A stretch of DNA of 63,670 nucleotides, filler included, from Reclinomonas americana ATCC 50394 (taxonomy: Eukaryota): NCBI GenBank assembly GCA_048213135.1. It is 5 parts of 3 records of this genome, joined end to end, with 100 filler letters (N's around TTAATTAATTAA, not from the genome) between each part and the next. Parts side by side here need not be neighbours in the genome. Positions count along the whole stretch, not along the records: positions 47,001 to 52,836 come from PS015039.1; 4 more parts are not named here. One strand, 5' to 3'. Position numbers and translations under genes: made by a program. Each line of letters begins with the position of its first letter. The stretch's first letter is position 1. Below are positions 3,203 through 61,879 of this stretch, one piece after another. The notes beneath the pieces are model-generated. The model searched no databases, was not told the DNA's origin, and worked only from the letters and a program-made list of their open reading frames with translations.

Positions 3203-6643
<3,441 letters not shown>

Positions 6644-10230: not shown

Positions 10231-13200
10231 TTACGCTGTGCGACCGAACGCAGCCCAGCTGTAGTCGACTTGCGAGACTGTGCCAGTGGTGACTGCGAAG
10301 CACACCTGGAGTGAGGCGGCGGTGATGGCGCCCGTGGTGAGGCTGAAGTTGTATGCGCTGTTCGACGAGGTGGCACGGTATCCGCGCACGAATACGGCGG
10401 CCACTGGCGCGCTGGTGAAGTGTCCGCTGGGGAACGTGATGGTGTCTGCAGGGCAACCGGCAGCCGAAACCGTACCCTCGCCGGCCAGCAAGCCGTATCC
10501 GCTAGGTGAGCTGTCGGGGAACGACAGGTACTCTGCGTGTACGCAAAGTCAGAATTAACACGAGCTGCACACAGAAGCGGTGACAAGCGCGCAAGACGCA
10601 ACGGTAGGTGAGACGGGACATGCGGGTATCGCCGTACAGCACCGCCTGGTAGCGGAAGTCACGGCGACCGACACCGACAAACACACCGCCCGAGAACGAC
10701 GTGTCAAAGCCGGTGGCGCTGTACAGCGCGCGCAGGGAGGTCACCAGCGACGGGGTGGAGGCATACGGGCCGAGGCTGCTTGCCCGATCCTGCTGCCGCA
10801 CAGTCGGCAACACGTCGCCGCTGGGCGCCCACCAATCGCGGCGGAGTTGTGAGGAGAAGTAGACGGCGCCTTGCGACGTGAGCGACACGTCACGCGGCGT
10901 GTATTGCGCCAGCACGTTGATCTCCAGGTTCTGCACGTAGGAGTGAGCATCAACGACAACGAGGACAATCTGCACACCCCAGTGCGTACCGACACCGAAG
11001 TCGAGCCGTAGGTGAGGCAGCGGATGGTGATGCCGAATGCGTCAAACTTGCTGCTCACGCACAATATTCCACGAATGGGCAAGAGCATTCATACATCAAG
11101 ACACATGTGTCAACAGGTGTACGCAACGTGGCAGCACAGTACACACGGCTGTCGGTCACACCGAAACCAATGCCGGAGAAACCAGTGATGACGGCCGGAC
11201 GGCGGGCTGAGTCATTTACAGTCAGAGAGAGACGATTGCCAACGTACAAGAGAAAGGGACCAATCGATCGTACCGAATCGCTGCGGGAAAGTGATCTGGG
11301 TGACCAAGGTGCGCGTGCCCGGTGGCGCGTCAAACTTGGAAGCAGTCCACTCGGGTGTCGGACCGACGGCTGGCGTAATCTGAGCCGTGTACACCTCTGC
11401 GGAAATGAAACAGAGCACGCGATTAGTTACCTTACTGCCAAACACAGAGCACACGACTGACGCACGGCTGCCAATGGTCAAGAGACCGCGCGAGTTCTCG
11501 TCGGTGAGCGGCAGGTTGATCCATGTGCCACCCGCGTTCTGTCGGTAGCACACTTGCATGGCGCGGCTCGGGGCGGCCACACTCAGCTTCACAACAAACG
11601 TCTGGTACACAGAGGTGTGCGGCAGCAGTTGCAGGAAGCCCGACGGTTCTGCGGTGGTGCTCGCAAAGCGCGTGACATCGGCATCGTCGGCGCCATTGCA
11701 TGTGCCGGCGTTGCTCAGGGTCTCGATGGCGAACTCGGCGCAATCCGTAAACTGGCCTTGCAGCGTGAGAGCAACCTGAGTTGCTGTCGGCTGGGGAGTG
11801 AGGGGGGAGAAAGAGGGAGGAAGTCAGCCGCACAAGCACCACATCAAGTAGAGACAGAGAGTGGCACGCACGGCAAACTCGGGATGCGTCCACGTCGGCG
11901 TCGACGCGAAAGCTGCAGTCAATGACCGACGAGGACAAGTCAGTATGACAGACAAGGAAATCTTCGCGGAGCCTTTCATCCAACGCAACGAATGACTTGA
12001 ATGGTGCGAATGGGCACGTACGACTCGCTGGCGCTCCACTGCACGCAGATCGACAGGTTGTTGCTCAGCGACGGCGCGCTGACATTGGTCGCGCCAGTGC
12101 AGTCGGCACGAGTGCTAACGGCGAGAATGTATCGGCTTCCGGTCGGCGCGCTGACGGCCGTGGCGCTGATGGAGGCGTTGGGGACGGCAGTTGGTGTGCC
12201 GGCCGTCGACGCCAAGCAGTCGGTGTCGGACGAGAGCACGAAAGTGGCGCCGGTGAGCGGGAACTGTGCGCCAGTGAACTTCATCTGGGCATTGGCGATG
12301 CCAGTCGGAATCTGTGTGGCCGTGTCGGCGGCGAACGTGGCCTTCACTGCAGTCACACAAGAGACACAAAAAATGTTAGCGGGAAGAACAAAGACAAGAG
12401 GGTAGAGACGGATGCTTCTCGTAACGCAACAGACGTGCACGGTTCCGTTGATCACGGCGCGGTAGGTGCCAGAGGCGTTCAGGTTGGCGCACAGCGTGAG
12501 GCCGTAGCGACCGACAGTCTGCAGGGAGGTGTCGAACTTGAGGGTGACGTCGGTGAGACCCGTGTACGTCTGCACCGTGGTCGGGACGGTGGCCGAGTAG
12601 TTGGTGCCGGTAGTGCACGACGAAGTCGTGAAGAGGGCATACGTGTCGGTGGCCTGGAAGCCGGCGGCGTTGGTGTTGAACTGCACCAGAATGTTGGCCT
12701 GCGACGACGTCAAGTAGACGGGAGTCGGGGCGGCAAAGCACGGTCCGTTCACAACCAGGGTGCTACCGGTCCACGTCACCACCGTGTTGCCGCTGACGTC
12801 GCTGGTGGCGCACACGTAAACGGGGGTGAGTTGGCGATCAGGGTGAGCCGTTGTGTCAACGATCCACGTCTGGGCCGTCGAGGTGCCACCGGCTTGCGGC
12901 GTGATGGCTATAGTGCCCGCGTACGCGGTGAGGCAGTCGGCCGCCGTGAACAAGCCATACGATGAGGTGGCAGCAAGCGGCACCGCAAACAGATCCTTGC
13001 CGCTGACGGCGATGGACTGCAGGCCAAGGCTGGTGCAAGTGCCCGCATTCACCGAGAAGGGACTGTCGCAAGCAAGGCAGGGAGAGGGTGGGTGAAGGAT
13101 TTCGACAGGTACAGCACCGCTGCTCACATCACGTACCGAGGCACCGTCACGCACGGCCGGTCAATGTTGACAATGTTGCCGGTGTTGCTGTAGTTGCCCT

Positions 13201-14389
13201 CGACGGCGGTCTTCATGCACAGGAAGAGGCCGGTGAGCGAGGTGGACTGGAACACGGTGTTGAAGCCGAGCGTCTGGTTAGCCGCATCCGAGTAGGCGCG
13301 CACAGTGATCACCACATTGGTGTTGGCGCTGGCAGCCGCGCAGTCGGCGCTGGTGAACAGCTGGTACGACAGGCCGGCAGTGGCCGGGGCGGGGAAGTCG
13401 GTGCCCACCACCACAATATCTTGCGGGTTGGTGACGCACGAGCCGGCGCGCAGCGGCGTAATGACCGGCGTGGTCACGCAGGCACCTGCCAATTGGGGTG
13501 AATAACGCGTGCAATGATAGAGAGTGAATGGAAATGAAGACAACTGACCATTGAGGTTGACACTCGTGCCCGTGTAGGCGTAGGTGCCAGTGGCCGTGGA
13601 GCGCGAGCACAGGTATCCCGTGGCATTCGCCGCACCAGAGGCGCTCGTGTACGACACCGTCGAGGCCGCCAACGACAAGGTCGCCGTCACCGACGTAACG
13701 CAGTTGGTGTCGGAGAAGAGCGCCAAGCTGTTGACCGTGGCCAGGTTGGAGCCGGTGACCGCCACCGTCTGCGTGGCAGGCGCACCACCACCGCAGCTGG
13801 TCGCCGCAAACTTGATCGCGCGCGGAGCAGTGACACACGCGCCATTGACATTGACAACTGCAGTGGTGTCGCTGAACGAGCCACCAGAGGTCGACGACAC
13901 GCACAACAGCAGACCACTGTGTCACACACACACACACACAATGAGCGATCATTGTTGCTGCACAGTCACTCACGTAATAAACGCAACGTGCTGCTCAGTG
14001 AGTAGCCCGTGGTGTCAAAGGTCAGGTCGACTGAGGTGGCCGAGAGGTTGCTGGCTGTGATGACAATGTTGTTGATAATGTCGCTGTTGGAGCAGGCGGG
14101 GTTGGCCGAGACCACTGCTGTGCGGTAGAGAGTGGTGGAGGCATTGGTGGGCAGTGCTGCGCCTGCAAAGGTGCGAGTGATGGAGGAGGGAGTGGCGAAG
14201 CAGGCGCTGGAGTTGGGCACGAGAGTGATGATGGTGCCAGCGGTCACTGTGTGTATGTGTGAGAGAGTGTGTTGTGAGAGAGAAGAGTTGGAGGAGGAGA
14301 GAGACGCAACACGTCTGTGCATTTGCCACGGAGCAGCACACGAGAAGGAGGAGGACTGCAAAGAGTGACACGCGAGTGTGCGTCGTCAT
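10231..14389 (-). CDS. Large secreted Thr/Ser/Cys-rich protein A with beta-sandwich-like repeats and C-terminal H-type-lectin-like domains
   Basis: Signal peptide MTTHTRVSLFAVLLLLVCCSVANAQT. Repeats of about 100 aa with a conserved LC. C-terminus DTITFPSGHFTSAPVAAVFVRGY...ITAASLQVCF...VDYSWAAFGRTA*. Clear paralog at 18042-22105. Confidence 0.75.
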
Positions 14390-14543: not shown

Positions 14544-17542
14544 TTACTTGGCCTTTTTCCGCCGGCTAAACATGGCTGTCTTCTGCATCGATCCGCTTCG
14601 GCTGGGCGTAAACGAAGGGCCGTTCGTCTTGCCGCCCCTCTTGTGCGCTCCGGTCTTCTTTTGCTTCTTGTTCCTCTTGTTCTGGCTTGCGGCAGCCTTC
14701 TCCGCAGCCTGCAGCTCCGCCAGGTCGGGGTCAGAGTCGTCGCCGGCGGCTTCGCCGTCGCTGCCGCTGCTGCTGCCCTTGACTACCTCGGCGGTGGTGT
14801 CGTCGAACGGCTCGTCTGCGCCGCCAAAGAGCGCCTCAAAGTCTTTTTCCGAGATCTTGCGCGACTTGAGCTTGCGCAGCAGGCGAGCGTCGTTGGCAAA
14901 CTCCTCCGCGTCGCGCGCCATGGCATCGCGTTTCCTCTTGAACCGTTCGCGACGTGTCAGTGGTGTGGCTGCAGCAGCGGCCGCCTTGGCGGCTGCGGTG
15001 GCCTTGGCTTTCTGTCGCACCATTTGCTCTGCGCGTCGCGTCTCGGCCTCGGCCTCCATCTTGAGCATGCGCGCCCGCCGAGCCTGTTCGCGGCTCTTCT
15101 CGCGGTACGGAATGTTTGCCACGTCGACGTCCTCCATCGGCGGGAAGCGATCCATGACCTTGCGCAGCTCCGGCATGCGAGGCAGCTGCACGATGCGATG
15201 AGTGCAAGCGGGAGAGGGAGAGGGGGGTGGGAGTGAGGGTGGGAGGGAGAGACGCACCGCCACGAGAGAGAGCAAGTGGGCCAGCGCGATGAGGTCGAGA
15301 GCCTTCAGTCGGAAAATGTAGCTGCACTTGTGCTCCCGGTAGCCGCGCACGTATGACACATACGCCTTTTGTGCCTTGTCAAAGAAGTCGCGGTCGGTGG
15401 CGGCCTCGCGTCGCACAAGCTCAAAGTACCGTAACCGGTCGGCGTTGGTCGACAGTCCCGTCGATTTCGACGACACTCGTGCGCCCTCTTCTTCGTCTTC
15501 GTCTTCCTCCTCCTCACCCTCGGCATCGTCCCTCATCTCCGCATCCTCTCCTTCTTGAGCTGGCCGAGCCTTGAAGGGAGCCAGAAACTCAAACTGTGTG
15601 TCCTCGATGGGAACCTTGCCGAGGCGCAAAAACTCTGCACACTCGCTGGTGAGTGAAAACGCACGCTTGCACACCGTGCCGTGCAACACGAGCGAACCAA
15701 TATATGAATCCTCCGCAGGGGTGAGGAAGAGAAGGGCACGACCGCGGCGACCCATGCGCGCCGTCCTTCCTATTCTGTGTACCATCATGCTGGGATCCTG
15801 CGGCGGATCCACTCTGTGCACACCACCGTCGCTCAGTGAGAACACCATCGTCGCCCCTTCCACCCCCACGCTTGTCGACGCAACTGAATCACAAAGTCAA
15901 CGTCGGGAATGTCGAGTCCTCGAGCCGCCACATCGGTGCACACCAGCACACCGCGCTCCGCCTTGACAAACTGCTCGTAGGTTCCGGTGCGGCGCTTCGG
16001 CACCATTTGCCCGTGCAGCGAGAACACCTCGGTCCGTTCACCGTCGCCAGCCGCCAGACACACACGCAGCACCGACGCAAAGTAGTCCACGCAAGCGCAC
16101 GTGAGGAAATACACGATGCACTTGTCGGCCACGTGGTGGCGCAGTGTCGCCACCAGTGCCGCGATCTTGTCCTCCAGTCGGCACACCAGGTACTCGTTGG
16201 TCAGCCTGCGAGTGACGAAGAAGAATAAGTGAGGCTTCACTGGCTGTGAGTGGTCCTCTCTGGAATGGCACGCAACGTCTTGGGGATCTTCGAGTCTTTG
16301 GGATGTGAAGAGGCGGGTGCCGCAGCCGTGCTGTCGGTGGCTCGTGGTTGCACGCGGACAGTGACCTTGACGGGGTTGCGCAGACCGGCGCGAATCAATT
16401 CCTGCAAGTCGTCCGTCTGGGTGGCCGAGAAGAGGCCCTGGTGTTCGAGCAGCAGATGGTGAGAGTAGTGCGGCACGCGAAACGAGGAATGGGAGAATGA
16501 ATGAGCAAACCGTGCGTCGTTGTTTTGGCAGCCTGGTGAGAATCGACGAGATCTGGTCGCGGAAACCGAGTTCAAGCAACCTACCCCAGCCGAAATGTGT
16601 CAATACCATCATGCACAGAATCGATCATGCACTCGGTGAGTGCGCACCGATCGGCCTCGTCGAGAATCAGCAGCTCCACATGCCGCGTGATCAGTCCACG
16701 CTCAATGAGGTCACCAAGACGCCCCGGAGTGCCAATCACCACCGCACACGATCGCACTCGGCGAAACTCTGCACGAGAAAAAACTCGGCTGTCACACAGA
16801 AGCACGCGTGTGGAGAGACACCAACGTCATGCACACCATCCTCCGCATCGGATCCACCAACAGCCAGTCCCACAGTGAACTCTGGCACCGCAGCATGCTC
16901 CTGCAGCTTCGTGGCCACAGCATGCACCTGATGCGCCAGCTCTCTATCAACGCACACGCAAGTGAGACACTGGCGCCAACACTCTCCTCTTGCTCCTTCA
17001 CTGCGCCCAAACACACCTCGTCGGCAACACCACCAGCGCAAACAGCGATCGCGGGGTGAGATCATTCGACGCCTTCATGCGCAACAGAAGCTCCAGTGCC
17101 GGAATGAGAAATGCCAGAGTCTTGCCACTGCCAGTGCATGCCTGTCACAGCATGTGAGCAACCGGCGCAGAACATGCACAAGGCTGCGTGTGTGTGCCCT
17201 CTCCATCTCCCCTTCTCCCGCCCTTCCTTTCTTCTCCCTCTCTCTCTCCCCCCTCTCCCTCCCTCTCTCCCTCTCTCTCCTTGTGCGAGTGAGACAAGTC
17301 ACCTCGGCGACTGCATCCTTGTTGGTGAGCAGCAGAGGAATGGTGGCCGCTTGCACTGGAGTGGCGGCGGTGAAGCCGAAGCCATCGCACAGCGCGTGCA
17401 GTGACTGATCGCTGAGAGAGCATGACAGATCGGACCATGCGGTGAAGGCCTGCATTTGTGTGAGTGTGCGTGTGGATCAGAGGGCCATGTGCAGATGCAC
17501 ATGCACAGAGCGTTCTCGGACACTGACCTTGCCGAGTGACAT
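14544..17542 (-). CDS. DDX55: DEAD-box RNA helicase DDX55/Spb4
   Basis: Q motif GFTAATPVQAATIP, plus ACTGSGKT, GTPGRL, LDEADRLL, LFSATQ, CTDVAARGLDIPDVD and HRIGRTARMG. C-terminal AYVSYVRGYREHKCSYIFRLK is typical of Spb4/DDX55. Confidence 0.9.
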
Positions 17543-18041: not shown

Positions 18042-21000
18042 TTACGTGTTGCGGCCAAAGGCGGCCCACGAGTAGTAGACCTCGGTGAGCACTGCCGGGC
18101 CACTCTCGGTCAAGCACACCTGCAGACCAGTGGCCAGCACGTTGGCGGTGGTCAGGTCGAACGAGACGCCAATGGTGGCAGCCGCCTGCTGAATCGCCCA
18201 GCCGCGAGCAAACACCACGGCCGTTGGGGCAGCGGCGAACACGTCATTGATGTCAAAGGTGATGGTGACGCAGGCGCCCGGAGCCACAGTGCCCTCACCG
18301 GCCAGCAGACCGTAGCCCGAGGCAGTGCGCTTCGGGAACGACATGTACTGGTAGGCCAGGCGAGCGACGCGCGTTTGCTTACGCACGTCGACCTGGTGGC
18401 GGAAGTTGCGGACACCGGCGGGGAACTGAATGCTGCCCTCGAACTCGGCCGGCTTGGTGCGGTCAATGTACAAGTGGCGCATGCCAGTCACAATCGACGG
18501 CGGGCTGGTGTACGGGCCAATGCTGATCGACTGGTCCTGCAGGCGGTGCGTCGGCAGGGTGGTCGAGGCGTTGCTCAGCTGGTTCCACCAGTCACGACGG
18601 CCCTGCGACGAGTAGCGGATGGTGCCGTCCGAGGTCAAGCCAAGGTCGCGAGCAGTGTACTGCGCCAGCACGTTGATGGTGAGCGACGTGATCGCCGTGT
18701 CCTCGTAGGTGATGCAGCGGGTGGTGAGCGACTCCTCGTCGAACGAGATGGCCGAGCAGTAGACGCGAGCATCCGAGTTGTCAAAGCCAAAGCCAGACAC
18801 ACCAATCATCAGGTACGGCTTGCCGGCTGTTCACGAGCAGGTAAGAGCAAAGTAGAGATGATTACACGTGGCAAACGACGGCCACGCACCAAAGCGATCA
18901 GCAAAGTTGATGGTCTGCAGCCAGATGCGGGTGCCAGACGGAATGCCAGCACTGGAGCCAGTCGCAAAGTTGGACTGTGTGAACGACAGGTTGGCAGCCG
19001 AGGAGAGCAACAGCGTCTGGAGCTCTGTAGTGTGCGCATGTTGCGCGCGTGAGTGAAAACCATCTTCAAGAAGCGGAGAGCCGCACAAAAGAAAGAGACG
19101 CAACGAGAGCCAATGCTGATAATGCCCTTGCTGTTCTCGTCGAGCTGCCACAGTGCCACCGGGGTCGCGCCAGCGTCGGCGGTCGCCTTGTAGCAGATCT
19201 GGAGAGCACGAATGGTGGTGGTGGTGGAGCTGACCGTCACGCGGGCCGAGAACGAATCGTAGTAGCCCGACGAGCCGTCAAACTGCTGGTAGCCGAGGCC
19301 GGCACCAATGGCCGACACGGTGACACCAGCCGGAGTGGCGCCAGTGCAAGGCTGGCCCAGCTTCTGCAGCTTCTCGAACGTGTACGAGGCGCAGTCCGAC
19401 AGCTGGCCGTGGATCGAGGCCACAAAGGCAGTGTCGACGGCAGCGTGCACCGGGAAAGTCCAGTTCGGGATGTTCACTTGAGCTGTGCGTACAAGGGGAA
19501 GTTAGCAAAACATGGATGCACACATAGGTCGCTGACATTAAAAAAACAACAAAACAAACCAGTGATGAAGACATCGGCGAGCTTGACGTACGAGTGGTTG
19601 ACGTTCCAGCGAATGCACAGCGGGTACGAGGCAGTGCGAGCAGCGGCAAACTGAGCCAGGTTGCAGCCGGAGCGAGTGTCAATGGCCAGAGCAATGCTAA
19701 TGTCGGTCGGCGGCGCCAGCGGCGACACGTCGACACCGCTCGGGTCCACATCGGTGTTGGTCAACAGAGTCGGCACACCACGCTCACGCTCCGCCAGAGC
19801 GGCGGCGGTGATGCAGTTGGCGTCGGTGGTGATGACAAACTGCGGAGTCGAGGTGGTGGGGAAGTAGTTGCCGCGGACGGTGATCGGGACGTTGAGCACG
19901 CCCTGCGACACGGTGATGGAGGCCGGGCGCACCGGGGCCACTGCACACGAGGGAAAAAACGGGGGCGCGAGGTGAGCAACGTGAGAGAGAGACAACAAAT
20001 GTAGGCAAGGGAATTGAAGCGAACCGAGAGCCAGGTTGCCGTTGATGACCTTCTGGGTGGCGGTGCCAGTGTTGACGCAGAGGCTGAGGCGGTTCAGGTC
20101 GGTGTTGATGCCCGACGCGTTGAAGGTGAACAGCACGTCGGTGCTGCTGGTGAAGCCAAGGGTGGCGGTGATGCCGCTGACAATGCTCGAGGCCGAGCAC
20201 GAGTCGTCCTTGTTGACAGTGAGGGTCATGCCGGCGGCGAAGCCAGACTCGTTCACCACGCCAATCGTGTGGTCGCCATAGTTGGCCATGATGTAGAGCA
20301 CAGCCGGAGACTGGTAGCACGGGCCCTTGATCTCCACAGTCGCACCAGTGTAGGTGAAGAAGGTGGGGTAGGTGGCGGTCGACGCGCAAATGTACGCCGG
20401 GGTGCCGTTGGAGACGGTGGTTCCACCGGTGCCGACGTCAATCGTGTTGGGTGAGCCGCCATTGGCCAGGGTCGGGATGGCGCCGCCGTTGGTCATGGAA
20501 GTGGCCGGGGTGGCCGGGACGAGGCAGTCAATGCCGGTGAACAGGTTGTACGTGGAACCGGGGAAATCCGAACCAGTGACGTCCACAGTGGTCGTGAGGC
20601 TGCCGCTGCACTGACCCGACAGCGCAGTGATCGGGCTGCGCAACAACAGAGGTGGAAATGGTAACAAAATGAGAAAAAGGATGGATGCACACAAAAAATG
20701 CGTGAGGGAGACTCACCGAGGAGTGCGGATGCAGGCAGAGCCAGTCTGCACCACCAGACCGTTGAAGCTCCAGTTCTGGGCACCGTTGTTGCCGCGCTCG
20801 CACACGAACCACGAGCCCGGGTTGCGCAGCAGGGAGGTGTTGGAGTTCAGGTTGAAACCGGAACCAAAGGACATTGTCAGAACAACGTTGGGCTCCTCAA
20901 TGTCGCAATCCTGGTTGTTGAAGGCGGCGAGTTGCGGAATGCTGGCCGGAGACAACGAGGGACCGCCGCCGCCCAACAGGATAACCTGGGGCTGGTTGAC

Positions 21001-22105
21001 GCAGCCGGCAGTCTGGATGAAGATCGGTGCCGTGGTGACGATGCCGTTGGTCAGGCAGCTGGTGTCGTGAACGACCGTGGCGCCAGACCAAGCGAGCTGC
21101 GAGGCGCCGACAGCAGCGCTCGCCGATGTGCAAATGTAGAACACGGTGGTTCCGGCCGAGGCAGTCTGATCGTAAACCAGCTGGCCAGTGCCGGCAGTGA
21201 CACCATTGGTCAGCGTCAGCGACGTCGGGCCGTTGCCGTCGGCAGTGCAAGCAGCGGAGGTGCGCACGCGCACAACAGCCGGGGCCAGGTTGGAGCCCTG
21301 GACGGTGATCGTCTGCGGGGCCGGCGCGACAAAGCCGCAACCGGTCTGCGCATTCAACTTGATCTGACCCGGGCTCTTGATGCACGCCGCATTGGCGTCC
21401 ACGCGCGAGGCGACCGAGATCCAGTTGATGTTGTCCGAGCTCACGCAGAGGAACAGGCCGCTGTAGCACAAGTCATCAGACAACTCGCAGGCAGGCGTGT
21501 TCCTTCAATACACACGAACCTGAGTGCCTCCTTCTGGTTCGAGGTCTGGAACACAAGGCTGGCCGTAGTGGCCGACGCAGCACCAGTGTGCGAGACCTTG
21601 ATGCCAGCGACCTCCGAGTTGCACACGTCACCGGCGGCGGTGCCAGTGGCCGCGTAAAACACCTTCCACAGCTGAGTAGAGGTCGGCAGATTCGTGGCAC
21701 CCGTCACCGACACTGCCTGGTTGGCCAAGTAGGCGTTGCAGTTGGAGCCATCAGGCACCAAGTTGATCGTGCCAAAGGCCGCAGGGAACGCTGCGGGTGC
21801 ACAACGGTCAATTTCGCGCCAAAAAATCACAACGGTCACATGCACGCGCTCTCACACAAAAACAAGTGCCTCACTCACTCAACTCACTCACACAAACCAC
21901 ACACACACACGCGAAACGACAGCAGCAACAAAGAGAGAAACAAGGGCGCAAGAGAGCTCCACATTGCCACAGAGGGAATGTGCGGTGGGCGCGCGCGAAA
22001 ACACACACTCAGATATAAAAAAACGCAACTTGGCTGGGCCAGTGCTGATGTTGCGACGACGCACAACACGCACAGGCTCACCAACAACCATGTGGTGGAC
22101 CGCAT
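18042..22105 (-). CDS. Large secreted protein B, paralog of A, ending in H-type-lectin-like domains
   Basis: Signal peptide MRSTTWLLVSLCVLCVVATSALAQP. Shares DENSxG, INVLAQYT, RRDWW, YGLLAGEGTV and YSWAAFGR blocks with protein A. Confidence 0.75.
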
Positions 22106-30740: not shown

Positions 30741-30840
30741 NNNNNNNNNNNNNNNNNNNNNNNNNNNNNNNNNNNNNNNNNNNNTTAATTAATTAANNNN
30801 NNNNNNNNNNNNNNNNNNNNNNNNNNNNNNNNNNNNNNNN
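30741..30840. other. Artificial scaffold linker N-TTAATTAATTAA-N (also at 46945, 52881, 61733)
   Basis: An identical six-frame-stop 12-mer is centred in N-runs four times. Confidence 0.9.
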
Positions 30841-43272: not shown

Positions 43273-44937
43273 TCACAAGCACCGGCGATGCACAATGCTC
43301 GGGCCTTCCTCCTCAAATTCAGCCATGAAGATCCACATCTTTGACAGCGACGACAGCATAGAGCCACCGATCCATGCCGAGGACTTGCGCTCCGGCGGTG
43401 CCACGATTCTGACTTCCGTGTTCGACGGAGCGCGGGCGATCAACTCCTTCTGCAGGCGCTCCGAGAAGCCTGCTCGTTGAGGAACAAAGGGGGAGAGGAA
43501 GAGAGCAACGTGAGGAGAGAGACCTCTCTTGTACATGTGCCCGCACAACGTACCGTCGAGCAGGGTGTTACCACCAGCCAACACAATGTTGCCGTACATG
43601 TCGTTGCGCATATCAACATCGCAGCGCTCGATCGAGTCAAAAACAAGCTGGTCAATGCTCTTCTCCTCCACATTGTCGACCAGCGACGGCTGAAACATGA
43701 CCTCTGCGCAGCGAAATCGCTCCGAGCCCACAGTAATAGTCTGCTTGTCAGGCAGCTCGTATGTCTTCTCGCACGCCGACGGCTCCTTCGACTTCAGCAG
43801 CTCGGCTTCAAAGTCAAGCGCCACATACGCCACCTTCTCCTTCATGTCACGCACAATTTTGCTGTCAGTGGGCGGTGAGCGGCCGCTCTCCGTCAACATC
43901 TACGAAGAACGGAGTGTGAGCAGACGAAATGAGAGATCCAGCTGGAGGCACACACACGCAAACTCACTTTCGTGAGGTAGTCAGTCACGTCACGGCCGGC
44001 CAGCGGCAGCGTCTGAACAGCGTGTGGCAACACGAATCCCTCGTAGACAGGCACACAATGCGTTACACCGTCGCCAGAGTCGATCACCAAACCGGTGGTG
44101 CGACCAGACGCGAACAAGGACAGCACCGCCTGGCTCTGCAGACACACGGAAGGCACATTAAAGCCAAACATGATGCTGATCACTGCGAATGTCATTGAGA
44201 AAATCAAGATAATTCGAACGCAGTGCTGCGCAACGCAACTCTTCTCGCGGTTCTGCTTCGCGTTGAGCGGAGGCTCAGTGAGCAGAACGGGGTGTTCCTC
44301 CGGATCCACACGGAGCTCCTTGTGGAAAGTGCGACTCCAGATCACGTCCAAGTAGTCCCAGTTTGTCACTGCGACACGCGCATTGAATGCAACACAAGTG
44401 CTCTCGAAAGCGCACGGAAGTGCTCACCGACTCCACGCTCAACAGGGTACTTCAGGGTCACGCGATCATGCCGAGCAATGGCCTCATCGCCAACGAGTGG
44501 GAAAGCTTCCTCTGGGGGGATATACGCGATGCGCATATATCGGTCGCGATTCCAACTGCATCGCAAAAAGAACATCAGAGAGCGGCTCGCACTGCAGTGG
44601 CCAAGCACACTCAACTGGCCGATAACAGTCGGAAAAACGGCGCGCGGTGCATCTTCGCCGCCGAAACCAACCTTGATCGCCGTGTGTGTGTCAACACACA
44701 AGTCACTCTCGTTCATCTCTCTCACTCACTCACACACATGCAAACGCAGCGTACCCTCGTCGTGCCTGCCAACGGCAATGATCATGAGAACACAGTCAGC
44801 AATCGCATCTAGATCGGCACATTGACTCACAAGAACCACTGTCGACTGTGAACCACATACGCTCGTCAGATGCACCACGTACGCAGAAACAAACTGCACA
44901 CACACTCACCAACGAGAATTTGCGCATGTGCGTCCAT
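43273..44937 (-). CDS. Divergent actin / actin-related protein
   Basis: Spliced [110 protein letters not shown] and IVHRRCL*. Confidence 0.9.
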
Positions 44938-46900: not shown

Positions 46901-47000
46901 NNNNNNNNNNNNNNNNNNNNNNNNNNNNNNNNNNNNNNNNNNNNTTAATTAATTAANNNNNNNNNNNNNNNNNNNNNNNNNNNNNNNNNNNNNNNNNNNN

Positions 47001-50000
47001 ACGAATCTGGTCGTTGGCACGCTGTCGACCACCGATGCCAATTCTGCGCAGACATTCACGTACACGATTGTGGGTGGCGCCAATGCGGCCATGTTCAACA
47101 TCTCGGGCAGTCAGCTGCGCATCACAACAGCAGGGCAAAATGGAACTGGGCTGGTTGTGACGATCCGATCCACTGACAGCGGGACAGGCTCGCTTTTCTT
47201 CAACAAGTCGTTCACCATCAACGAAAGTTGCGGCGTGCGATGACGTTCCCAACGTGCCTGCGACTTGAAGTGACCGTTCTCTTGCAAATCGTCGTAGATA
47301 ACGTGGCGCCGACCGATATCGCGCTGTCGGCCACCACATATACTCCGCCCACGACCGCGAATCTGGTTGTCGGCACGCTGTCGACCACCGATGCCAATTC
47401 TGCGCAGACATTCACGTACACGATTGTGGGTGGTGCCAATGCGGCCATGTTCAACATCTCGGGCAGTCAGCTGCGCATCACAACAGCAGGACAAAACGGC
47501 ACTGGGCTGGCTGTGACGATCCGATCCACCGACAGTGGCACGGGTTCGCTCTTCTTCGACAAGTCGTTCACCATCAACGAGAGTTGCGGGCCGCGTGGCT
47601 GTGAGCAATGGTGCTTCTGTGCCGTGCTTGGCTGATTTCGCAATGTCGTAGATAACGTCGCGCCGACCGATATCGCGCTGTCGGCCACCACATATACTCC
47701 GCCCACCACGGCGAACATGGTCATTGGCACACTGTCGACCACCGATGCCAATTCTGCTCAGACATTCACGTACACAATTGTGGGTGGTGCCAATGCAGCC
47801 ATGTTCAACATCTCGGGCAGTCAGCTGCGCATCACCACTGCAGGACAAAACGGCACTGGCCTCCTGGTGACTGTGCGGTCGACCGACAGTGGCACAGGCT
47901 CGCTTTTCTTCGACAAGTCGTTCACCATCAACGAGAGTTGCGTCTGTCGTGTGCTTCTGTGTCGCACATACTCAGTGGCGTCTGACCAGCTGCGGCTTCG
48001 GTTGCAGTCAATGTGGCGCCAACCGACATCGCGTTGTCAGCCACGATATACACTCCACCGTCGACAGCGAACTTGGTGGTCGGCACGCTGTCGACCACCG
48101 ATGCGAATTCTGCGCAGACATTCACGTACACGATTGTGGGCGGTGCAAATGCTGCCCTGTTCAACATCTCGGGCAGTCAGCTGCGCATCACCAGCGCGGG
48201 CCTCACTGGCAACGGATACGTGGTGACGATTCGGTCCACCGACAGTGGCACGGGCTCGCTCTTCTTCGATAAGTCCTTCACCATCAGTGAGAGTTGCGGC
48301 CTGTGATGACCGTGCCAATGTGCCTGCGGTTCGGTCTGTGTTGAACTAACCATTTTCTTGCAAATTGTTGCAGATAACGTGGCGCCGACCGATATCGCGC
48401 TGTCGGCCACCACGTACACTCCTCCCACCACCGCGAACGTGGTCATTGGCACACTNNNNNNNNNNNNNNNNNNNNNNNNNNNNNNNNNNNNNNNNNNNNN
48501 NNNNNNNNNNNNNNNNNNNNNNNNNNNNNNNNNNNNNNNNNNNNNNNNNNNNNNNNNNNNNNNNNNNNNNNNNNNNNNNNNNNNNNNNNNNNNNNNNNNN
48601 NNNNNNNNNNNNNNNNNNNNNNNNNNNNNNNNNNNNNNNNNNNNNNNNNNNNNNNNNNNNNNNNNNNNNNNNNNNNNNNNNNNNNNNNNNNNNNNNNNNN
48701 NNNNNNNNNNNNNNNNNNNNNNNNNNNNNNNNNNNNNNNNNNNNNNNNNNNNNNNNNNNNNNNNNNNNNNNNNNNNNNNNNNNNNNNNNNNNNNNNNNNN
48801 NNNNNNNNNNNNNNNNNNNNNNNNNNNNNNNNNNNNNNNNNNNNNNNNNNNNNNNNNNNNNNNNNNNNNNNNNCATGGTCATTGGCACACTGTCGACCAC
48901 CGACGCGAATTCGGCGCAGACCTTCACATACACGATTGTAGGTGGTGCCAATGCAGCCATGTTCAACATCTCGGGCAGTCAGCTGCGCATCACCACAGCA
49001 GGACAAAACGGCACTGGCTTGGTGGTGACCGTGCGGTCCACTGACAGTGGCACGGGCTCGCTTTTCTTTGACAAATCGTTCACCATCAACGAGAGTTGCG
49101 TCTGTCGTGTGCTTCTGTGTCACACACACTCGTCTGTGTCTGACCAGCTGCGGCTTCGATTGCAGTCAATGTGGCGCCGACCAACATTGCGTTGTCGGCC
49201 ACCACGTACACCCCACCATCGACCGCGAACGTGGTGGTCGGCACACTGTCGACCACCGATGCGAATTCTGCGCAGACATTCACGTACACGATTGTGGGTG
49301 GCGCCAATGCTGCCCTGTTCAACATCTCGGGCGCCCAATTGCGCATCACCAGCGCGGGTCTCACTGGCAACGGATACGTGGTGATTGTGCGGTCGACCGA
49401 CAGCGGGACCGGCTCCTTGTTTGTCGACGTGACGTTCACAGTCAGCGAGAGTTGCGCGGCAGCTTATAGAGCGTGCAATCCCTCATATCCAGTTTTCCTT
49501 TTCTCACGCCTACATCCGACTGCAGCCAACGTGGCGCCGACTAACATCTTGCTGTCAAGCACTTCGTACTCACCGCCGTCGGTTGGCGCGAATGCAGTGA
49601 TTGGCACACTGTCGACCACCGATGCCAATTGCTGTCAGACGTACACCTACACCATTGTCGGCGGAGCAAATGCAGCCCTGTTCAACATTTCGGGCTCGCA
49701 GCTGCGGTTTACAAGCAGTGGCCAGACTGGAACTGGACTGCAGGTGACGATCCGTTCGACGGACAGCGGCAGTGGTTCTCTGTTTGTCAGCGTGACGTTT
49801 ACAATTAACGAAGGTGAGACACGCATTGCTGTCACCTTGTACACTCTGCCTTGCGCTCATTCCTCACTGAAAAAAACAGCGAATTTCGCGCCGACCGACA
49901 TTGTGCTGTCGTCGGCCGTGTACACGCCACCACTTGCTCTCAATGGAGTAATTGGCTCGCTGACCACCACCGACGGCAACTGCTGCCAGACATTTGTGTA

Positions 50001-52836
50001 CACGATCAGTGGTGGCGCTGACGCTGCCAAGTTCAACCTGTCTGGCGCGCAGCTGCGCTCGAACATTGCGGGGCTGACAGGAGATGGCCTACAAGTGCAG
50101 ATCACCACCGACGATCAGAACGGTGGCACTTTTAGCAAGACGCTGACGATCAGCGAAGGTATCCTCGCCAGCGTGTGTTGTTGTGCTCTGCAGCTATGTT
50201 CATCCCTGTCCCAACTCCGCAGTCAATCTTGCGCCGACCAACATTGCACTGTCGAGCACATTGTACTCAGTGCCGGCCGCCGCCAACAGCGTCGTGGGAA
50301 CTCTGTCTACCACCGACGGCAACTGCTGTCAGACGTTCACGTACTCCATCGTGGGGGGCGCCAACGCTGCTCTGTTCAACATCTCAGGGAGCAGTCTGCG
50401 CATCACCAATGCAGGTCAGTCAGGCAACGGGCTGGTCGTCACGGTGCGGTCGACCGACAGCGGCGCCGGTGGACTCTTTGTGGACAAGTCGTTCACGATC
50501 GACGAGGGTGCGTCTTGATGGTGTGTGTAGCGGGGCTTGTATGATCTCGCTGACTTTGTGTGTGTGCGACACAGCAAATGTGGCGCCGACGGACGTTGTG
50601 CTGTCGAGCTCGACATACGTGCCACCGACTGCGGGGGCCAACATTGTCGTGGCAACGCTGAGCACAGTGGACGCGAACTGCTGCCAGTCTTTCACGTACA
50701 GCATTCAAGGTGGAGCATCGGCAGCCTTGTTCAACATCTCTGGCAATCAGCTGCGCATCACCGCCGCCGGGCAGACGGGGACTGGACTCGTTGTCATCAT
50801 TCGTTCGACTGACAACGGCACCGGGTCGCTGTTCGTGAACAAGACGGTGACCATCAACGAAGGTGAGTGTGCTGCACTTCCTCTCATCGAACCAGTCGTT
50901 TTCGCTCACACGGCCTCGCAACGCACGCAGCTAACGTCGTTCCCACTGACATCTCGCTGTCGAGCACTCTGTACACCTCACCACTCGCACTCAACGGAGT
51001 GATTGGCACGCTCTCGACAACGGATGCCAATTGCTGCCAGTCGCCAGTGTACACGATTGTCGGTGGCGCGGATCAAGCCAAGTTTGCCATCTCCGGCAAT
51101 CAGTTGCTGAGCAATGTCAGCGGCCTTACCGGCAACTCGTACTCGGTGACGATTCAAACCGACGACCAGAACGGCGGACAGTTCTCCAAATCATTCACCA
51201 TTAGCGAAGGTGAGTGTCATGCACACGACTGGGGTCAACATGCTGTGGAGGGTAGACTCACGTTATCTGACGTGATGCAGCGAATGTGGCTCCGAGCAAC
51301 TTGTCACTGTCTGCGACATCGTACAGCCCGCCAACGACAATGGCCAACACTGTGATTGGCACGCTGTCCACCACTGATGTCAACTGCTGCCAGTCGTTCA
51401 CCTACACCATCACCGGCGGCGTCAACGCCGCTCTCTTCAACATCTCTGGCAGCCAGTTGCGCATCACCGCCAACGGACAGGTCGGTGGTGGCTTGCAGGT
51501 GCGGGTACGAACCACAGACGACGGCACCGGGGCGCTGTTCTTCGAGAAAACATTCACCATCACCGACAGTTGCATCCTCCCTTTCCTCTGAGTTGCCTTC
51601 TGCATTCTCCTGACACTCTACATGCATGCGCACACGCACACAGCACCCCAGCCACCCACCAATATCTTGATCACGTCGGTGACGTACGTGCCACCGACGG
51701 CGGCAGCGAACACAGTCGTGGGCGTGCTGAGTGGCGTGGATCCCAATGTGGGCGACACCTTCACGTTCAGTGTGCAAGGCGGCGCCAATGCCGCGCTGTT
51801 CAACATTGCAGGCGGCAACAATCTGGTGCTGCGCAACGCCGGCCAGACGGGCAATGGCCTGACGGTGACGGTGCGAGTGACGGATAGCACGAGTCAGACA
51901 TTTGATCGGACATTTGTGATTGATGAAGGTGAGGAGGAGAGAGAGGAAGAGAGAAATAGAAAGAGAATCATTCTTCTCCCTTCCCTGTTTCACACACACA
52001 ACCAACTGACTTGCTGTGATATGCACGCAGCCAACGTTGCGCCGACCAACATCAGCTGCAGCTCGACTACGTATGTGCCACCGGCCACACTGGGAAGTGT
52101 GATTTGCACGCTGTCGACGGTGGATGCCAACTGCTGCCAGACGCCGACGTACACGATCAGTGGCGGTGCCGATAGTGGCAAGTTCAGTGTGAGTGGCTCT
52201 CAACTGGTGGCGAATGTGGGTGGCGGTGGCCTGTCTGGCAACGGTCTGCAAGTGACGATTACGTCGGACGACGGACACGGCGGCAGTGTGAGCAAGACAC
52301 TGACGTTCAACGAGAGTGCGTGCCGCAGCTTGTGTTTGGGAATCACGATGCAGTTAGCTGACTCTGCCATGTGTTGTAGGCAATGTGGCGCCGACGAATA
52401 TCGGGCTGTCGGCGAACACGTACACACCGCCGACGAGCATGGTCAACACGGTGATTGGCACACTGAGCTCGACGGACGCCAACACGGGCGAGACGTTTGT
52501 GTACTCGGTGGTCGGCGGTGCTGCGCAGGCGCTGTTCAATGTGAGCGGGACACAGTTGCGCTTAAGTGCGAATGGACAGACGGGAACTGCACTCGTTGTG
52601 GTGATTCGCACGACGGACAGCGGTGGTGCGACGTTTGACACGTCGTTCACTGTGAATGATGGTGAGTTGTGGGTGTCTGCGTGTGTGTATAGCGGTGTGT
52701 ATGTGTCGCCAGCTGTTGCTCAACAGTTAATGGCGGCTGCGCAGTTCCTGTGGCGCCGACCAACATTGCACTGTCGTCGACGGTATACACGCCGCCGACG
52801 ACGGGCACAAACAGTGTTGTTGGTGCGATGACGACG
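47001..52836 (+). CDS. Internal part of a giant cadherin-like repeat protein; at least 17 repeats of about 95 aa, one per exon
   Basis: Repeat NVAPTDIALS...VGTLSTTDAN..QTFTYTIVGGANAA.FNISGSQLR....VTIRSTDSG.GSLFFDKSFTINE, separated by phase-1 introns of about 65-100 nt. Both ends lie in gaps. Confidence 0.85.
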
Positions 52837-53001
52837 NNNNNNNNNNNNNNNNNNNNNNNNNNNNNNNNNNNNNNNNNNNNTTAATTAATTAANNNNNNNN
52901 NNNNNNNNNNNNNNNNNNNNNNNNNNNNNNNNNNNNCGTTGCTTGCGAGCCCTGATTTGGTTGCTTACATTCACGCCGCTGACGAGTGAGACACAACGAT
53001 A

Positions 53002-59801: not shown

Positions 59802-61620
59802 CTACTCTCCCTTGCTGTCTGTCGTTCACTTCACATGCATGCATAACCAGTCTCTTTGCACTCTCTGTCTCTCTCCCTCCTTCATTCTCCCTTCTCTTCT
59901 CTCTCTCTCTCTTTCTCACTCATTGTCTTCGTCTTCTTCTGCAGGATGAGGACGGTGCGAGTGGAGACGAGGAGAATGGAGTGGAGATTGAGTACGTTGC
60001 GGAGCCTTTGATGCTGGATCCGTCAATGTTTGGTGATGTGTTGCGGCGATTTGATCCCACGTTGGCCGCCGCCGATGAGATCAAGGTTTGTGGGACTGCT
60101 GTGAGGGTGAGAAGGAGAGTCAGACGTAAGCAATGCCTCGTCCAGTCTGTTACAGAGCGAGGGAGAGAGATGCTCGGCCTGCTGCGCCTTTCTGTTTGCA
60201 GAGTGACAGCCAGTCAGTTGCTCTTGCATTAGCAGTGTATGCACACACGCACGCACAGAGAGAGTGAGTGAGAGCCAAAAGCAAGCGCAGCATGTACAGA
60301 AAGAGGAGGGCCATTCGGCATGCTGCGCCATTCTGTGTGTAGAGCGACAGCCAGTCAGTTTCTCCCGCCTTGCTTGCACGCGTGCACACAGAGGGTGAGA
60401 GCCATCTTGCCTGAAACTGTATGCACATCTCTCACGCAGAGTCAGTGTTTGCCGAGCCTGCTTCTCTCCTCACGCGCGACTGAGAAAGAGCCATCTTGCA
60501 CGTCGCACGAGTTTGTGATGAGTAAGAATCCCTCTGTACCTCCCTCACTAAGAGCCATTGTTTGCCGATCATGCTTTCTCGTTTTCGCCACTGAGAGAGT
60601 GTCTGCATTCTGTCCCACGAGCCCGTGAGCAGAAACTATCTCCGCATCCCTCCAGCAGAGTGACGAGCATGCTTTCCTCTCCCCTCTCTCCCTCCCTCCC
60701 TCTCATCACTCCTGTCCTCTCCTCTCTCTCCCCTCCCTCTCTCTCACCTTCTCCCCCGCCCCTCCCCTCTCTCAGGAGGAAGACGGCGTGGAAGTCAAGG
60801 TGGAAGACGCCAAGAAGGACCTGTTTGCTGGTGGAATGGACGACGACTCGGACGAGGAGGAAGAGGCGGCGAATGGCGAGAAGAAGCAGAAGCTCAGCAA
60901 CCGCAAGAAGAAGCTGCTGACGCGCCTGTCGGTGGCCGATCTGAAGCAACTGGTGCCGCGGCCAGAAGTCGTGGAGGTGTGCAAGAACGGAGAAATTACT
61001 CCTTCTGTTCTTCCCGCTCACTCACACACACCCTTCTGTCTGCAGGCCCACGACGTGACCGCCGCCGACCCCCGCCTCCTCGTCTTCCTCAAATCCTACC
61101 GCAACACGGTGCCGGTGCCGCGTCACTGGTCGCAGAAGCGCAAGTACCTGCAGGGCAAGCGCGGTATCGAGAAGCCGCCGTTCAAGCTGCCCGAGTTCAT
61201 CGAAGAGACGGGTATCCGCAAGATGCGCGAGGCGTACTTTGAGAAGGAGAACGAGAAGAAGCTGAAGCAAAAGGCGCGCGACCGCATGCAGCCCAAGTCG
61301 GGCGGCATGGACATTGACTACCAGGTGTTGCACGACGCCTTTTTCAAGTTCCAGACCAAGCCAAAGTTGACGGGACACGGCGATCTGTTGCGTGGCATGG
61401 AAGGACGTGCGCTGCTGTCCCGAAGCAATCGTCCTCACCGTCGTCGCGCAGGTACTACGAGGGCAAGGAGTTTGGCGTCAAGTTGGACGACCGCATACCA
61501 GGCATGCTCACGTCGGAGCTGAAGGAGGCACTGGGCATGCCCGAGGGCGCACCACCACCATGGTTGATCAACATGCAGCGATTTGGACCGCCGTTGTCGT
61601 ACCCCAAGATGAAGATTCCG
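59288..61620 (+). CDS. SF3B2: Splicing factor 3B subunit 2 (SAP145/Cus1); 3' end in gap
   Basis: RLSVADLKQLVPRPEVVE, DPRLLVFLKSYRNTVPVPRHWSQKRKYLQGKRGIEKPPF, DIDYQVLHDAFF, GDLYYEGKE, PPPWLINMQRFGPP. Confidence 0.95.
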
Positions 61621-61879
61621 GTGAGTGGTAGGAAGGATGAAGGGAAGAGGGCGAGAGATACTGAGAGGCACTTGCTGCTGCTGCCACCNNNNNNNNNNNN
61701 NNNNNNNNNNNNNNNNNNNNNNNNNNNNNNNNTTAATTAATTAANNNNNNNNNNNNNNNNNNNNNNNNNNNNNNNNNNNNNNNNNNNNGAGAGGTAGTGT
61801 GTGTGTGTGAGTAGAGAAGGAAGTAGGAGGAAGTAGACGACGTGAGTAGTACGTACGTCGTCGCTACTACGTCGCGCTC

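Follow-up and report, generated by a model that had tools for sequence, protein, structure and literature searches.

Two classes of 5' splice site in a window of Reclinomonas americana DNA and their possible reading as one U1-binding motif in two registers

In this work, we describe an unusual class of 5' splice sites in a stretch of 63,670 nucleotides (nt) of DNA from Reclinomonas americana ATCC 50394 (assembly GCA_048213135.1), here called the window, and in particular in a tandem array of cadherin-like repeat exons found at its positions 47001-52836. About one third of the predicted introns begin with GTTGCG and never follow an exon ending in G, while the donors of ordinary form mostly do. 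On balance we favour, for the array and for the window as a whole, the interpretation that both forms are a single motif bound by the U1 small nuclear RNA (snRNA) and read in two registers. A broader formulation can be offered only tentatively: the spliceosome of this organism may read a fixed U1 word, G-N-T-G-M-G-T in the usual ambiguity code, and cut at whichever GT it contains, about a third of the introns being cut one base upstream and the base at -1 and the extra T switching together, as in the cadherin-repeat gene. This would possibly be the first genome in which donors of a shifted register form a major class governed by a rule.

Introns were predicted by a parse whose scoring is limited to codon usage, GT, YAG and intron length, and which is therefore blind both to the donor motif and to the exon side of the junction. 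Outside the array, 48 introns were obtained, 16 of which start with GTTGCG: their -1 base is A in seven, C in six and T in three cases, and never G, while G precedes 21 of the other 32 (Fisher test, p 6.4e-6). Ordinary donors follow the pattern G|GT[GAT][ACT]G[TC]; those outside the array with a G at +5 (GTNNG, n = 21) have G at -1 in 19 cases, C at +4 in 11, and rarely G at -2 (A6, C8, G1, T6). The two without G at -1 lie at 13127 and 43967, both on the minus strand, and the array adds a third at 52316. When bases are scored as G or not G, the -1 base of the GTTGCG class is clearly unlike the ordinary -1 (p 1.2e-8) and indistinguishable from the ordinary -2 (p 1.0); similarly, T is found at +7 in 14 of the 16, to be compared with T at +6 in 15 of the 21 ordinary donors. 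The flanking positions of the class behave, in other words, as ordinary positions one step upstream.

Counts of the bare motif give a similar picture. HGTTGCGT, where H is any base other than G, is found 38 times in the window against 9.74 +/- 3.24 expected, a figure reached in none of 100 shuffles; GGTTGCGT is absent, with 2.51 occurrences expected, and none of the 38 NGTTGCGT sites has G at -1. Outside the array, the base in front of GTTGCGT is A in 14, C in 10, T in 12 and G in no cases. Over the whole window, AGTTGCG is enriched (31 against 12.4 expected), with no such excess for GGTTGCG (7 against 11.0). The stretch from 6.0 to 24.8 kb has 15 HGTTGCGT sites, every one of them on the minus strand, as are all five gene models there. 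From these counts, the link between the -1 base and GTTGC is real and strong, and not special to the array gene. Other approaches were less informative: scoring single sites by the coding score of their flanks, over 7,308 GT sites, was too noisy, and a degenerate exon-donor pattern found no match in the metagenome contigs searched. As a rough control, in 80 metagenome loci containing SF3B2 relatives (at most 65% identity, many redundant) G precedes GTTGCG in 22 of 150 instances.

Given that the gene parse makes errors, the GTTGCG sites might not be donors at all, the motif being, for example, a repeat of the transcribed strand within mis-modelled genes. We give this explanation very little credence: a parse blind to the donor picks GTTGCG at one third of its introns, a branch motif of the CTSAC type and a YAG are found 57-92 bases downstream of each site, and removal of the intron produces exactly the expected protein junction at five sites in conserved genes. 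The gene for a DEAD-box helicase has an A|GTTGCGT intron at 15814..15884 (minus strand, 71 nt, phase 2), which lies between positions 88 and 90 of the Helicase_C profile and splits the codon for position 89. Two paralogous protein kinase genes carry A|GTTGCGT introns at 37953..38011 (minus strand, 59 nt, phase 1) and 5536..5600 (plus strand, 65 nt), both between positions 177 and 179 of the Pkinase profile, with the codon for position 178 split. In an actin-like gene, the A|GTTGCGT intron at 44183..44239 (minus strand, 57 nt, phase 1) yields the product REK-M-ISIMF, which aligns without gaps to REKMTQIMF of the actin P0211 (376 residues). Finally, in the gene for SF3B2 a T|GTTGCGT intron at 61387..61451 (plus strand, 65 nt, phase 2) follows an exon ending at position 120 of the 127 of DUF382 (...HGD); the splice product reads HGD-L-YYEGKEF and continues into a PSP domain, a consistent junction, if not one matched position by position. 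The five GTTGCGT sites are shown by these comparisons to be the splice sites predicted for conserved genes.

A boundary placed as HG|TTGCG, with a correspondingly shifted acceptor, was rejected: the helicase and actin introns would have non-AG 3' ends, and the conserved actin Met would be replaced. The two kinase paralogues extend over 5295-5722 (plus strand) and 37831-38297 (minus strand), and have the A|GTTGCGT intron at one and the same Pkinase position, 178. For SF3B2, the best named relative is that of the archamoeba Pelomyxa schiedti, with 68% identity; protein searches with a repeat of the array, an exon of the actin-like gene and one of SF3B2 gave no near-identical match.

The proposed relationship between the two forms is as follows. 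The ordinary donor may be written H-G|G-T-R-M-G-T, and the second form, which accounts for about one third of introns, H|G-T-T-G-C-G-T. Read one base further on, GTTGCGT would be an ordinary GTGCGT with its first G changed to T, the first G of the intron taking the place of the exon-end G. Both forms could be written as one motif, H-G-K-T-G-M-G-T, to be cut after its first G where K is G, and before it where K is T, because in the latter case the only GT lies one base upstream. U1 snRNA would bind the two alike, and in the second form its helix would be shifted by one base relative to the cut, with G+1 opposite C9, a mismatch between U+2 and C8, and the positions from U+3 to U+7 paired. In such a helix the last exon base would therefore be the equivalent of the ordinary -2, which is rarely G. 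The same avoidance of G at the ordinary -2 supports this equivalence, though it does not point to a cause of the avoidance.

A second, rarer form of the same kind may be represented by [AT]GTTGAGT, which looks like the shifted parallel of the ordinary GTGAGT. Outside the array, A or T precedes 11 of 12 NGTTGAGT sites. Three of these, all A|GTTGAGT, look like introns, each with a branch-like motif followed by CAG: on the minus strand 44615, in the actin-like gene, and 26116, and on the plus strand 55795.

Pairing with U1 was evaluated with ViennaRNA. Using a U1 5' end of the ACGUAC type, a one-letter variant of the standard one which may not be that of the organism, the mean energy over 22 GTTGC donors is -5.2 kcal/mol; in those printed examples that have A or C at -1, the lowest energy belongs to the shifted helix, with an A-1:U10 pair where the base is A, and in the printed example with T at -1 only positions +3 to +8 are paired. 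A U1 of this type would, if the model holds, explain the C in GTTGCGT. A plain count of pairs gives H|GTTGCGT no advantage over H|GTGCGT, and still the first is common and the second rare; it is suggested that a G opposite C9 may matter more than a G opposite C8. An Rfam scan of the window returned no family at gathering score.

The same donors could also be accommodated in the ordinary register, U1 pairing with GUUGCGU while one U, at +2 or +3, is bulged out and the last exon base faces C9. This arrangement would keep the G+1:C8 pair and the same downstream pairs, and has a documented precedent in human cells, where the +2/+3 bulge class comprises 68 predicted sites according to Table 3 of PMC4856993. 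We consider it improbable all the same, since a bulge predicts that G should be favoured at -1, where it is found neither in the 16 parsed GTTGCG donors nor at the 38 NGTTGCGT sites, and since the energy model returns the mismatched, shifted structure, not the bulged one, as the minimum wherever a printed example has A or C at -1.

A number of observations weigh against the two-register interpretation as well. With the standard U1 5' end (PMC4856993), the 22 GTTGC donors pair negligibly in any register, with a mean of -1.2 kcal/mol, so that the shifted model requires a U1 of non-standard type. Nor can pairing by itself explain why G is never found at -1, as a G-U10 pair would be tolerated. Coding constraint on the -1 base is unsupported as the driver of the choice between classes, which are alike in phase (phase 0 in 2 of the 16 GTTGCG introns and 5 of the 21 ordinary ones, p 0.67). 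The common GTACGT donor has hardly any shifted counterpart, NGTTACGT being found at two sites, and the GTTGCG class varies far less than the ordinary one. The parse has its faults: the GTTGCGT introns of the actin, helicase and two kinase genes escaped it, with 15879 chosen in the helicase, and it differs at 5 of the 15 array sites. Finally, all counts and donor classes come from one window of 64 kb.

The near invariance of the 7-mer, with T at +7 in 14 of 16 cases and G at +4 and C at +5 in all 16, the last two partly by definition, might instead indicate a dedicated recogniser, a second U1-like snRNA with a 5' end complementary to GUUGCGU, or a protein, which would serve this intron class as U11 does the minor introns, the -1 rule being its own preference. 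In favour of such a factor are the absence of an exon-side G, as in the rigid donors of minor introns, the scarce pairing of GTTGC donors with the standard U1 5' end, and the existence of variant U1 5' ends in Archamoebae, reported in a preprint (bioRxiv 10.1101/2022.06.08.495308). We still judge it unlikely, because three features are those expected from one recogniser: branch sites (CTSAC) and intron lengths are alike in both donor classes, the GTTGAGT variants mirror the ordinary choice between GTGAGT and GTGCGT, and the -1 base of the GTTGCG class mirrors the ordinary -2.

The likeness to U12-type introns, which also combine a rigid intron-side donor with no preference for an exon-side G, does not extend further. 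GTTGCGT is not RTATCCTT, the branch motifs are of the ordinary CTSAC kind, and the class shows neither that donor nor the U12-type branch motif, TCCTTAAC, at 10-15 bases from the 3' end. A single array intron (I09, at 50159) starts with GTATCCT, matching seven of the eight bases of the minor-intron donor, and shows by eye a TCCCAAC about 10 bases before the AG; having AAG before its donor, it could equally be an ordinary weak donor. A minor spliceosome is reported as lacking in Mastigamoeba (PMC8136499), which bears on the present case only if the organisms are related.

Shifted-register and bulge-register U2-type 5' splice sites have reportedly been described in human genes by Roca and Krainer in 2009 and by Roca et al. 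in 2012. As in the window, those sites have a GU donor, a U1 helix displaced by one base or containing a one-base bulge, and a cut at the GU, and their classes include sites of the GUU... kind. The form described here differs in accounting for about a third of introns (16 of 48), in its near-invariant 7-mer and in its strict ban on G at -1, while the human sites are rare; the present case is made from sequence and protein homology. According to Tan et al. 2016 (PMC4856993), the validated non-canonical registers together make up about 1.5% of human 5' splice sites.

In Archamoebae, the preprint by Roy and Bowser (bioRxiv 10.1101/2022.06.08.495308) describes GUUUGU donors with an AACAAAC U1 in Entamoeba, and in Mastigamoeba balamuthi an ACGUAC U1 candidate together with GUGCGC (4C) donors. 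The window resembles these in the frequent C at +4 of its ordinary donors (11 of 21) and in having G|GTTTGT donors; it differs in its second class, since no second donor class, and neither the word 'bulge' nor 'register', appears in that text. The G+C content of the window, 57.6%, compares with 60.7% reported for M. balamuthi; this, the G|GTTTGT donors and the SF3B2 match to Pelomyxa schiedti would be weak hints of kinship, on which no part of the argument depends. The G|GTTTGT and G|GTTCG[TC] donors of the parse, in which GTT follows a G and the +5 G is kept, are located at 19559, 7666, 21519 and 20024, all on the minus strand.

In ordinary donors, the G at the exon end and the G at +5 are known to depend on each other (PMC8283771), which likewise links the exon and intron sides of the junction. 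Taken in the ordinary register, the GTTGCG class has G neither at -1 nor at +5, contrary to this trade-off, which it obeys only one base further along. A search of the literature on GTTGCG or GUUGCG donors, on shifted or bulged registers and on protists, not covering the supplementary intron and snRNA results of the Mastigamoeba genome paper, yielded no description of such a class. Shifted-register donors are known as a rarity; what is suggested to be new here is a donor of this kind as a major, rule-bound class.

The array which led to these observations occupies a contig fragment of its own, at 47001..52836 (plus strand), bounded by spacers and interrupted by an inner N gap at 48456-48873. 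It contains 17 tandem cadherin-like repeat exons, four of which are cut by gaps or contig ends, and nothing else; tblastn with one repeat found 17 copies, all in this fragment and none elsewhere in the window. The repeat is about 94 residues long, with one exon of 279-288 bases (about 282 nt) for each copy, and the exon alignment gives the consensus NVAPTDIALSATTYTPP...GTLSTTDAN...FTYTIVGGANAA.FNISGSQLRIT...FTINE. The segments between exons, 64-102 bases long, start with GT, contain a CTSAC-like motif and end with YAG. The gene is truncated at both ends by the contig borders, and the fragment appears to be part of a eukaryotic gene for a long protein with at least 17 cadherin repeats of bacterial type, each in a single exon.

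The initial annotation had placed 15 introns of the array at one common phase-1 position, seven of them following A and starting with GTTGC, seven following G, and one, A|GTGCGT at 52316, departing from the split; all 15 donor strings were found where they had been placed, and the division between A and G stands as described. The common position holds, because all full exons align end to end and end one base past the codon ...[IVF]x[ED]. An in-frame AG acceptor lies directly before xNVAPT for 14 of the 15 donors, which closes the frame. The intron splits the codon for the variable residue x of the linker E-x-N-V-A-P-T, which is N, I, T or S when the -1 base is A, and A or V when it is G. Since this residue is variable in the repeats and in their bacterial relatives too, the protein hardly constrains the -1 base.

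The first six A|GTTGC introns are I01 (47227..47297, A|GTTGCGG, 71 nt), I02 (47583..47651, A|GTTGCGG, 69 nt), I03 (47937..48007, A|GTTGCGT, 71 nt), all three in phase 1, I04 (48293..48373, A|GTTGCGG, 81 nt), I06 (49095..49165, A|GTTGCGT, 71 nt) and I07 (49451..49525, A|GTTGCGC, 75 nt), all on the plus strand, as are the other introns of the array. The donor of I04 was picked by a parse aided by a donor profile, and its acceptor, ttgttgcag|ATAACGTGGCG, was read by eye; the exon that follows enters the N gap. The seventh, I13 (51569..51643, A|GTTGCAT, 75 nt), has a forced donor, this being the only in-frame GT upstream of the read-through stop at 51589-51591. The introns following G are I08 (49814..49879, G|GTGAGA, 66 nt), which is stop-free in frame, and so not forced by it, I09 (50159..50222, G|GTATCCT, 64 nt), whose GTATCCT is the only one in the window, I10 (50508..50574, G|GTGCGT, 67 nt), I11 (50863..50930, G|GTGAGT, 68 nt), I12 (51210..51280, G|GTGAGT, 71 nt), I14 (51929..52030, G|GTGAGG, 102 nt) and I16 (52662..52744, G|GTGAGT, 83 nt, or 65 nt with another acceptor). 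The exception is I15 (52316..52379, A|GTGCGT, 64 nt).

Ten of the array donors were recovered by the donor-blind parse; at four others it chose another in-phase GT (48287, 50177, 51216 and 51893), and it read through 49814. At these five sites the choice of the donor rests on the constant repeat length; at I09, for example, the alternative at 50177 would lengthen the linker by 6 residues. With a donor profile added, the parse reproduced 13 of the 15. When the spliced array was aligned to bacterial relatives, 42 of 132 windows were gap-free within 6 residues of the junction; the gaps shown at junctions are deletions of at least 2 residues or alternative placements, and nothing is inserted between E and N on the eukaryotic side. 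These alignments weakly support the predicted array junctions.

It had further been proposed that the -1 base and the insertion of T co-evolved in a compensatory way within this gene, which would thereby provide an internal control for the donor rule. The association itself proved strong on the evidence of the unrelated genes of the window; evidence from within the single gene did not bear the weight put on it, and the role of internal control could not be upheld, the array holding one or two origins of A|GTTGC, which are too few. A Fisher test on the 15 array donors gives p 0.0014, an overstated value, as the rows are not independent. The array gene is to be taken as an illustration of the donor rule, not as an independent control. 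Compensation is one possible wording for the pattern; a single U1-binding motif in two registers seems to fit better.

A maximum-likelihood tree was built from those 15 exons that reach 200 bases, with the split codon and the final four bases of each exon excluded, and the switches of -1 base and donor were mapped onto it, as had been envisaged. The repeats R1 to R7, except R5, most of which falls in the gap, form one clade with support 88/88, all six with A|GTTGCG; R9, R12 and R15 form a starred clade. Of the earlier description of these six as recent duplicates, the single clade is borne out, and the recency is not: third-codon identity is 60-77% within the clade, and about 40-50% among the other repeats. 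R13, at 51569, is placed outside the A clade, on weak branches. Its separateness from the six, also suggested initially, is found in the best tree, which needs two origins of A|GTTGC, and none of 200 bootstrap trees unites the seven rows; the approximately unbiased (AU) test does not reject them as one clade (p 0.268, log-likelihood difference 3.09). The independent pairs offered by the tree are too few for a test. One clade of all eight rows with A at -1 is rejected by the AU test (p 0.0138), so the A at 52316 is a separate event.

These results bear on the simplest alternative, namely that A and GTTGC were copied together from one ancestral unit and have no functional link. Six of the seven A|GTTGC cases do form one clade, and the AU result is compatible with a single origin; the reading appears nonetheless to be already contradicted by the window-wide counts, the same link between the -1 base and GTTGC being found in unrelated genes, and is disfavoured by the bootstrap trees, so that we hold it to be very unlikely. 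It also fits poorly with the introns themselves: their interiors are mostly at the shuffled baseline (47 +/- 4.4%), with the exception of I03/I06 (89% identical), I01/I04 (68%), I02/I04 (61%) and I01/I02 (58%), and the first five bases, GTTGC, are invariant across all seven. An invariant GTTGC next to randomised interiors points to probable selection on the donor word.

Mobile introns similar to introners were also considered. The interiors of the array GTTGC introns show no similarity beyond splice signals, save in recent unit duplicates, and no common sequence was seen by eye in the GTTGCGT introns outside the array; a mobile-intron origin was rejected for this lack of interior similarity. 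We infer that a single intron, duplicated along with its exon, was the ancestor of all those in the array.

In the two-register interpretation, the array pairs A with GTTGC and G with GTGAG because of the rule described above, and would have switched form once or twice, keeping exon length. Such a length-neutral switch would need a change of the -1 base together with the gain or loss of one intron base. A plausible path begins with the loss of the -1 G, giving A|GTGCGT as at 52316, and continues with the gain of one T, though the order may have been different. The three states of the path are all present in the array: G|GTGCGT at 50508, A|GTGCGT at 52316 and A|GTTGCGT at 47937. The site at 52316 would be a plausible intermediate, whichever the direction of change.

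As to the origin of the gene, a search with one repeat found as closest relatives long bacterial proteins, mostly of Planctomycetes and Bacteroidota, with 42-53% identity and E values down to 1e-126. These are named cadherin-domain proteins and carry PF00028 in precomputed annotation; single repeats of the array score 13 bits against PF00028, whose gathering cut-off is 28.8, and only one of five repeats is listed at all. Searches of PDB and NCBIfam with the repeat gave no match of note. The array gene shows the codon bias of the window and has an intron in every linker. The occurrence of repeats of bacterial type in a eukaryotic gene suggests a gene transfer, possibly followed by the gain of one intron and then by amplification of the unit made of exon plus intron.

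The window, whose G+C content is 57.6%, is a chain of contigs joined by 100-base spacers of structure N44-TTAATTAATTAA-N44, found for example at 30741-30840, 46901-47000, 52837-52936 and 61689-61788; neighbourhood across a spacer may not be real. Long TC, CA and TCT microsatellites lie beside many of its genes. Two multi-exon genes, at 10243-14247 and 18045-21782, both on the minus strand, have a strong coding signal and look like paralogues by their open reading frame translations; they are almost without Pfam match, the only one being an H-type lectin domain at 18045-18827. Many GTTGCGT donors run on as GTTGCGTTG, as at 44239, 53966, 24345, 6888 and 11989 (all minus strand) and 55527 (plus strand); several of these are a near-duplicate GTTGC-GTTGC, which could reflect extended pairing or slippage.

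The coordination of U1 binding with the subsequent choice of where to cut is an open question, approached so far through artificial suppressors and a few unusual sites in human genes. If the interpretation proposed here is true, two registers side by side within one genome, under a simple rule, would amount to a natural experiment replicated hundreds or thousands of times. Such a genome would reveal which U1 contacts are required, the pair with C9 rather than that with C8, and would show donor sites moving between forms while the protein remains unchanged. In practical terms, about a third of the introns of such an organism would be wrongly placed by gene finders whose training was on ordinary donors.

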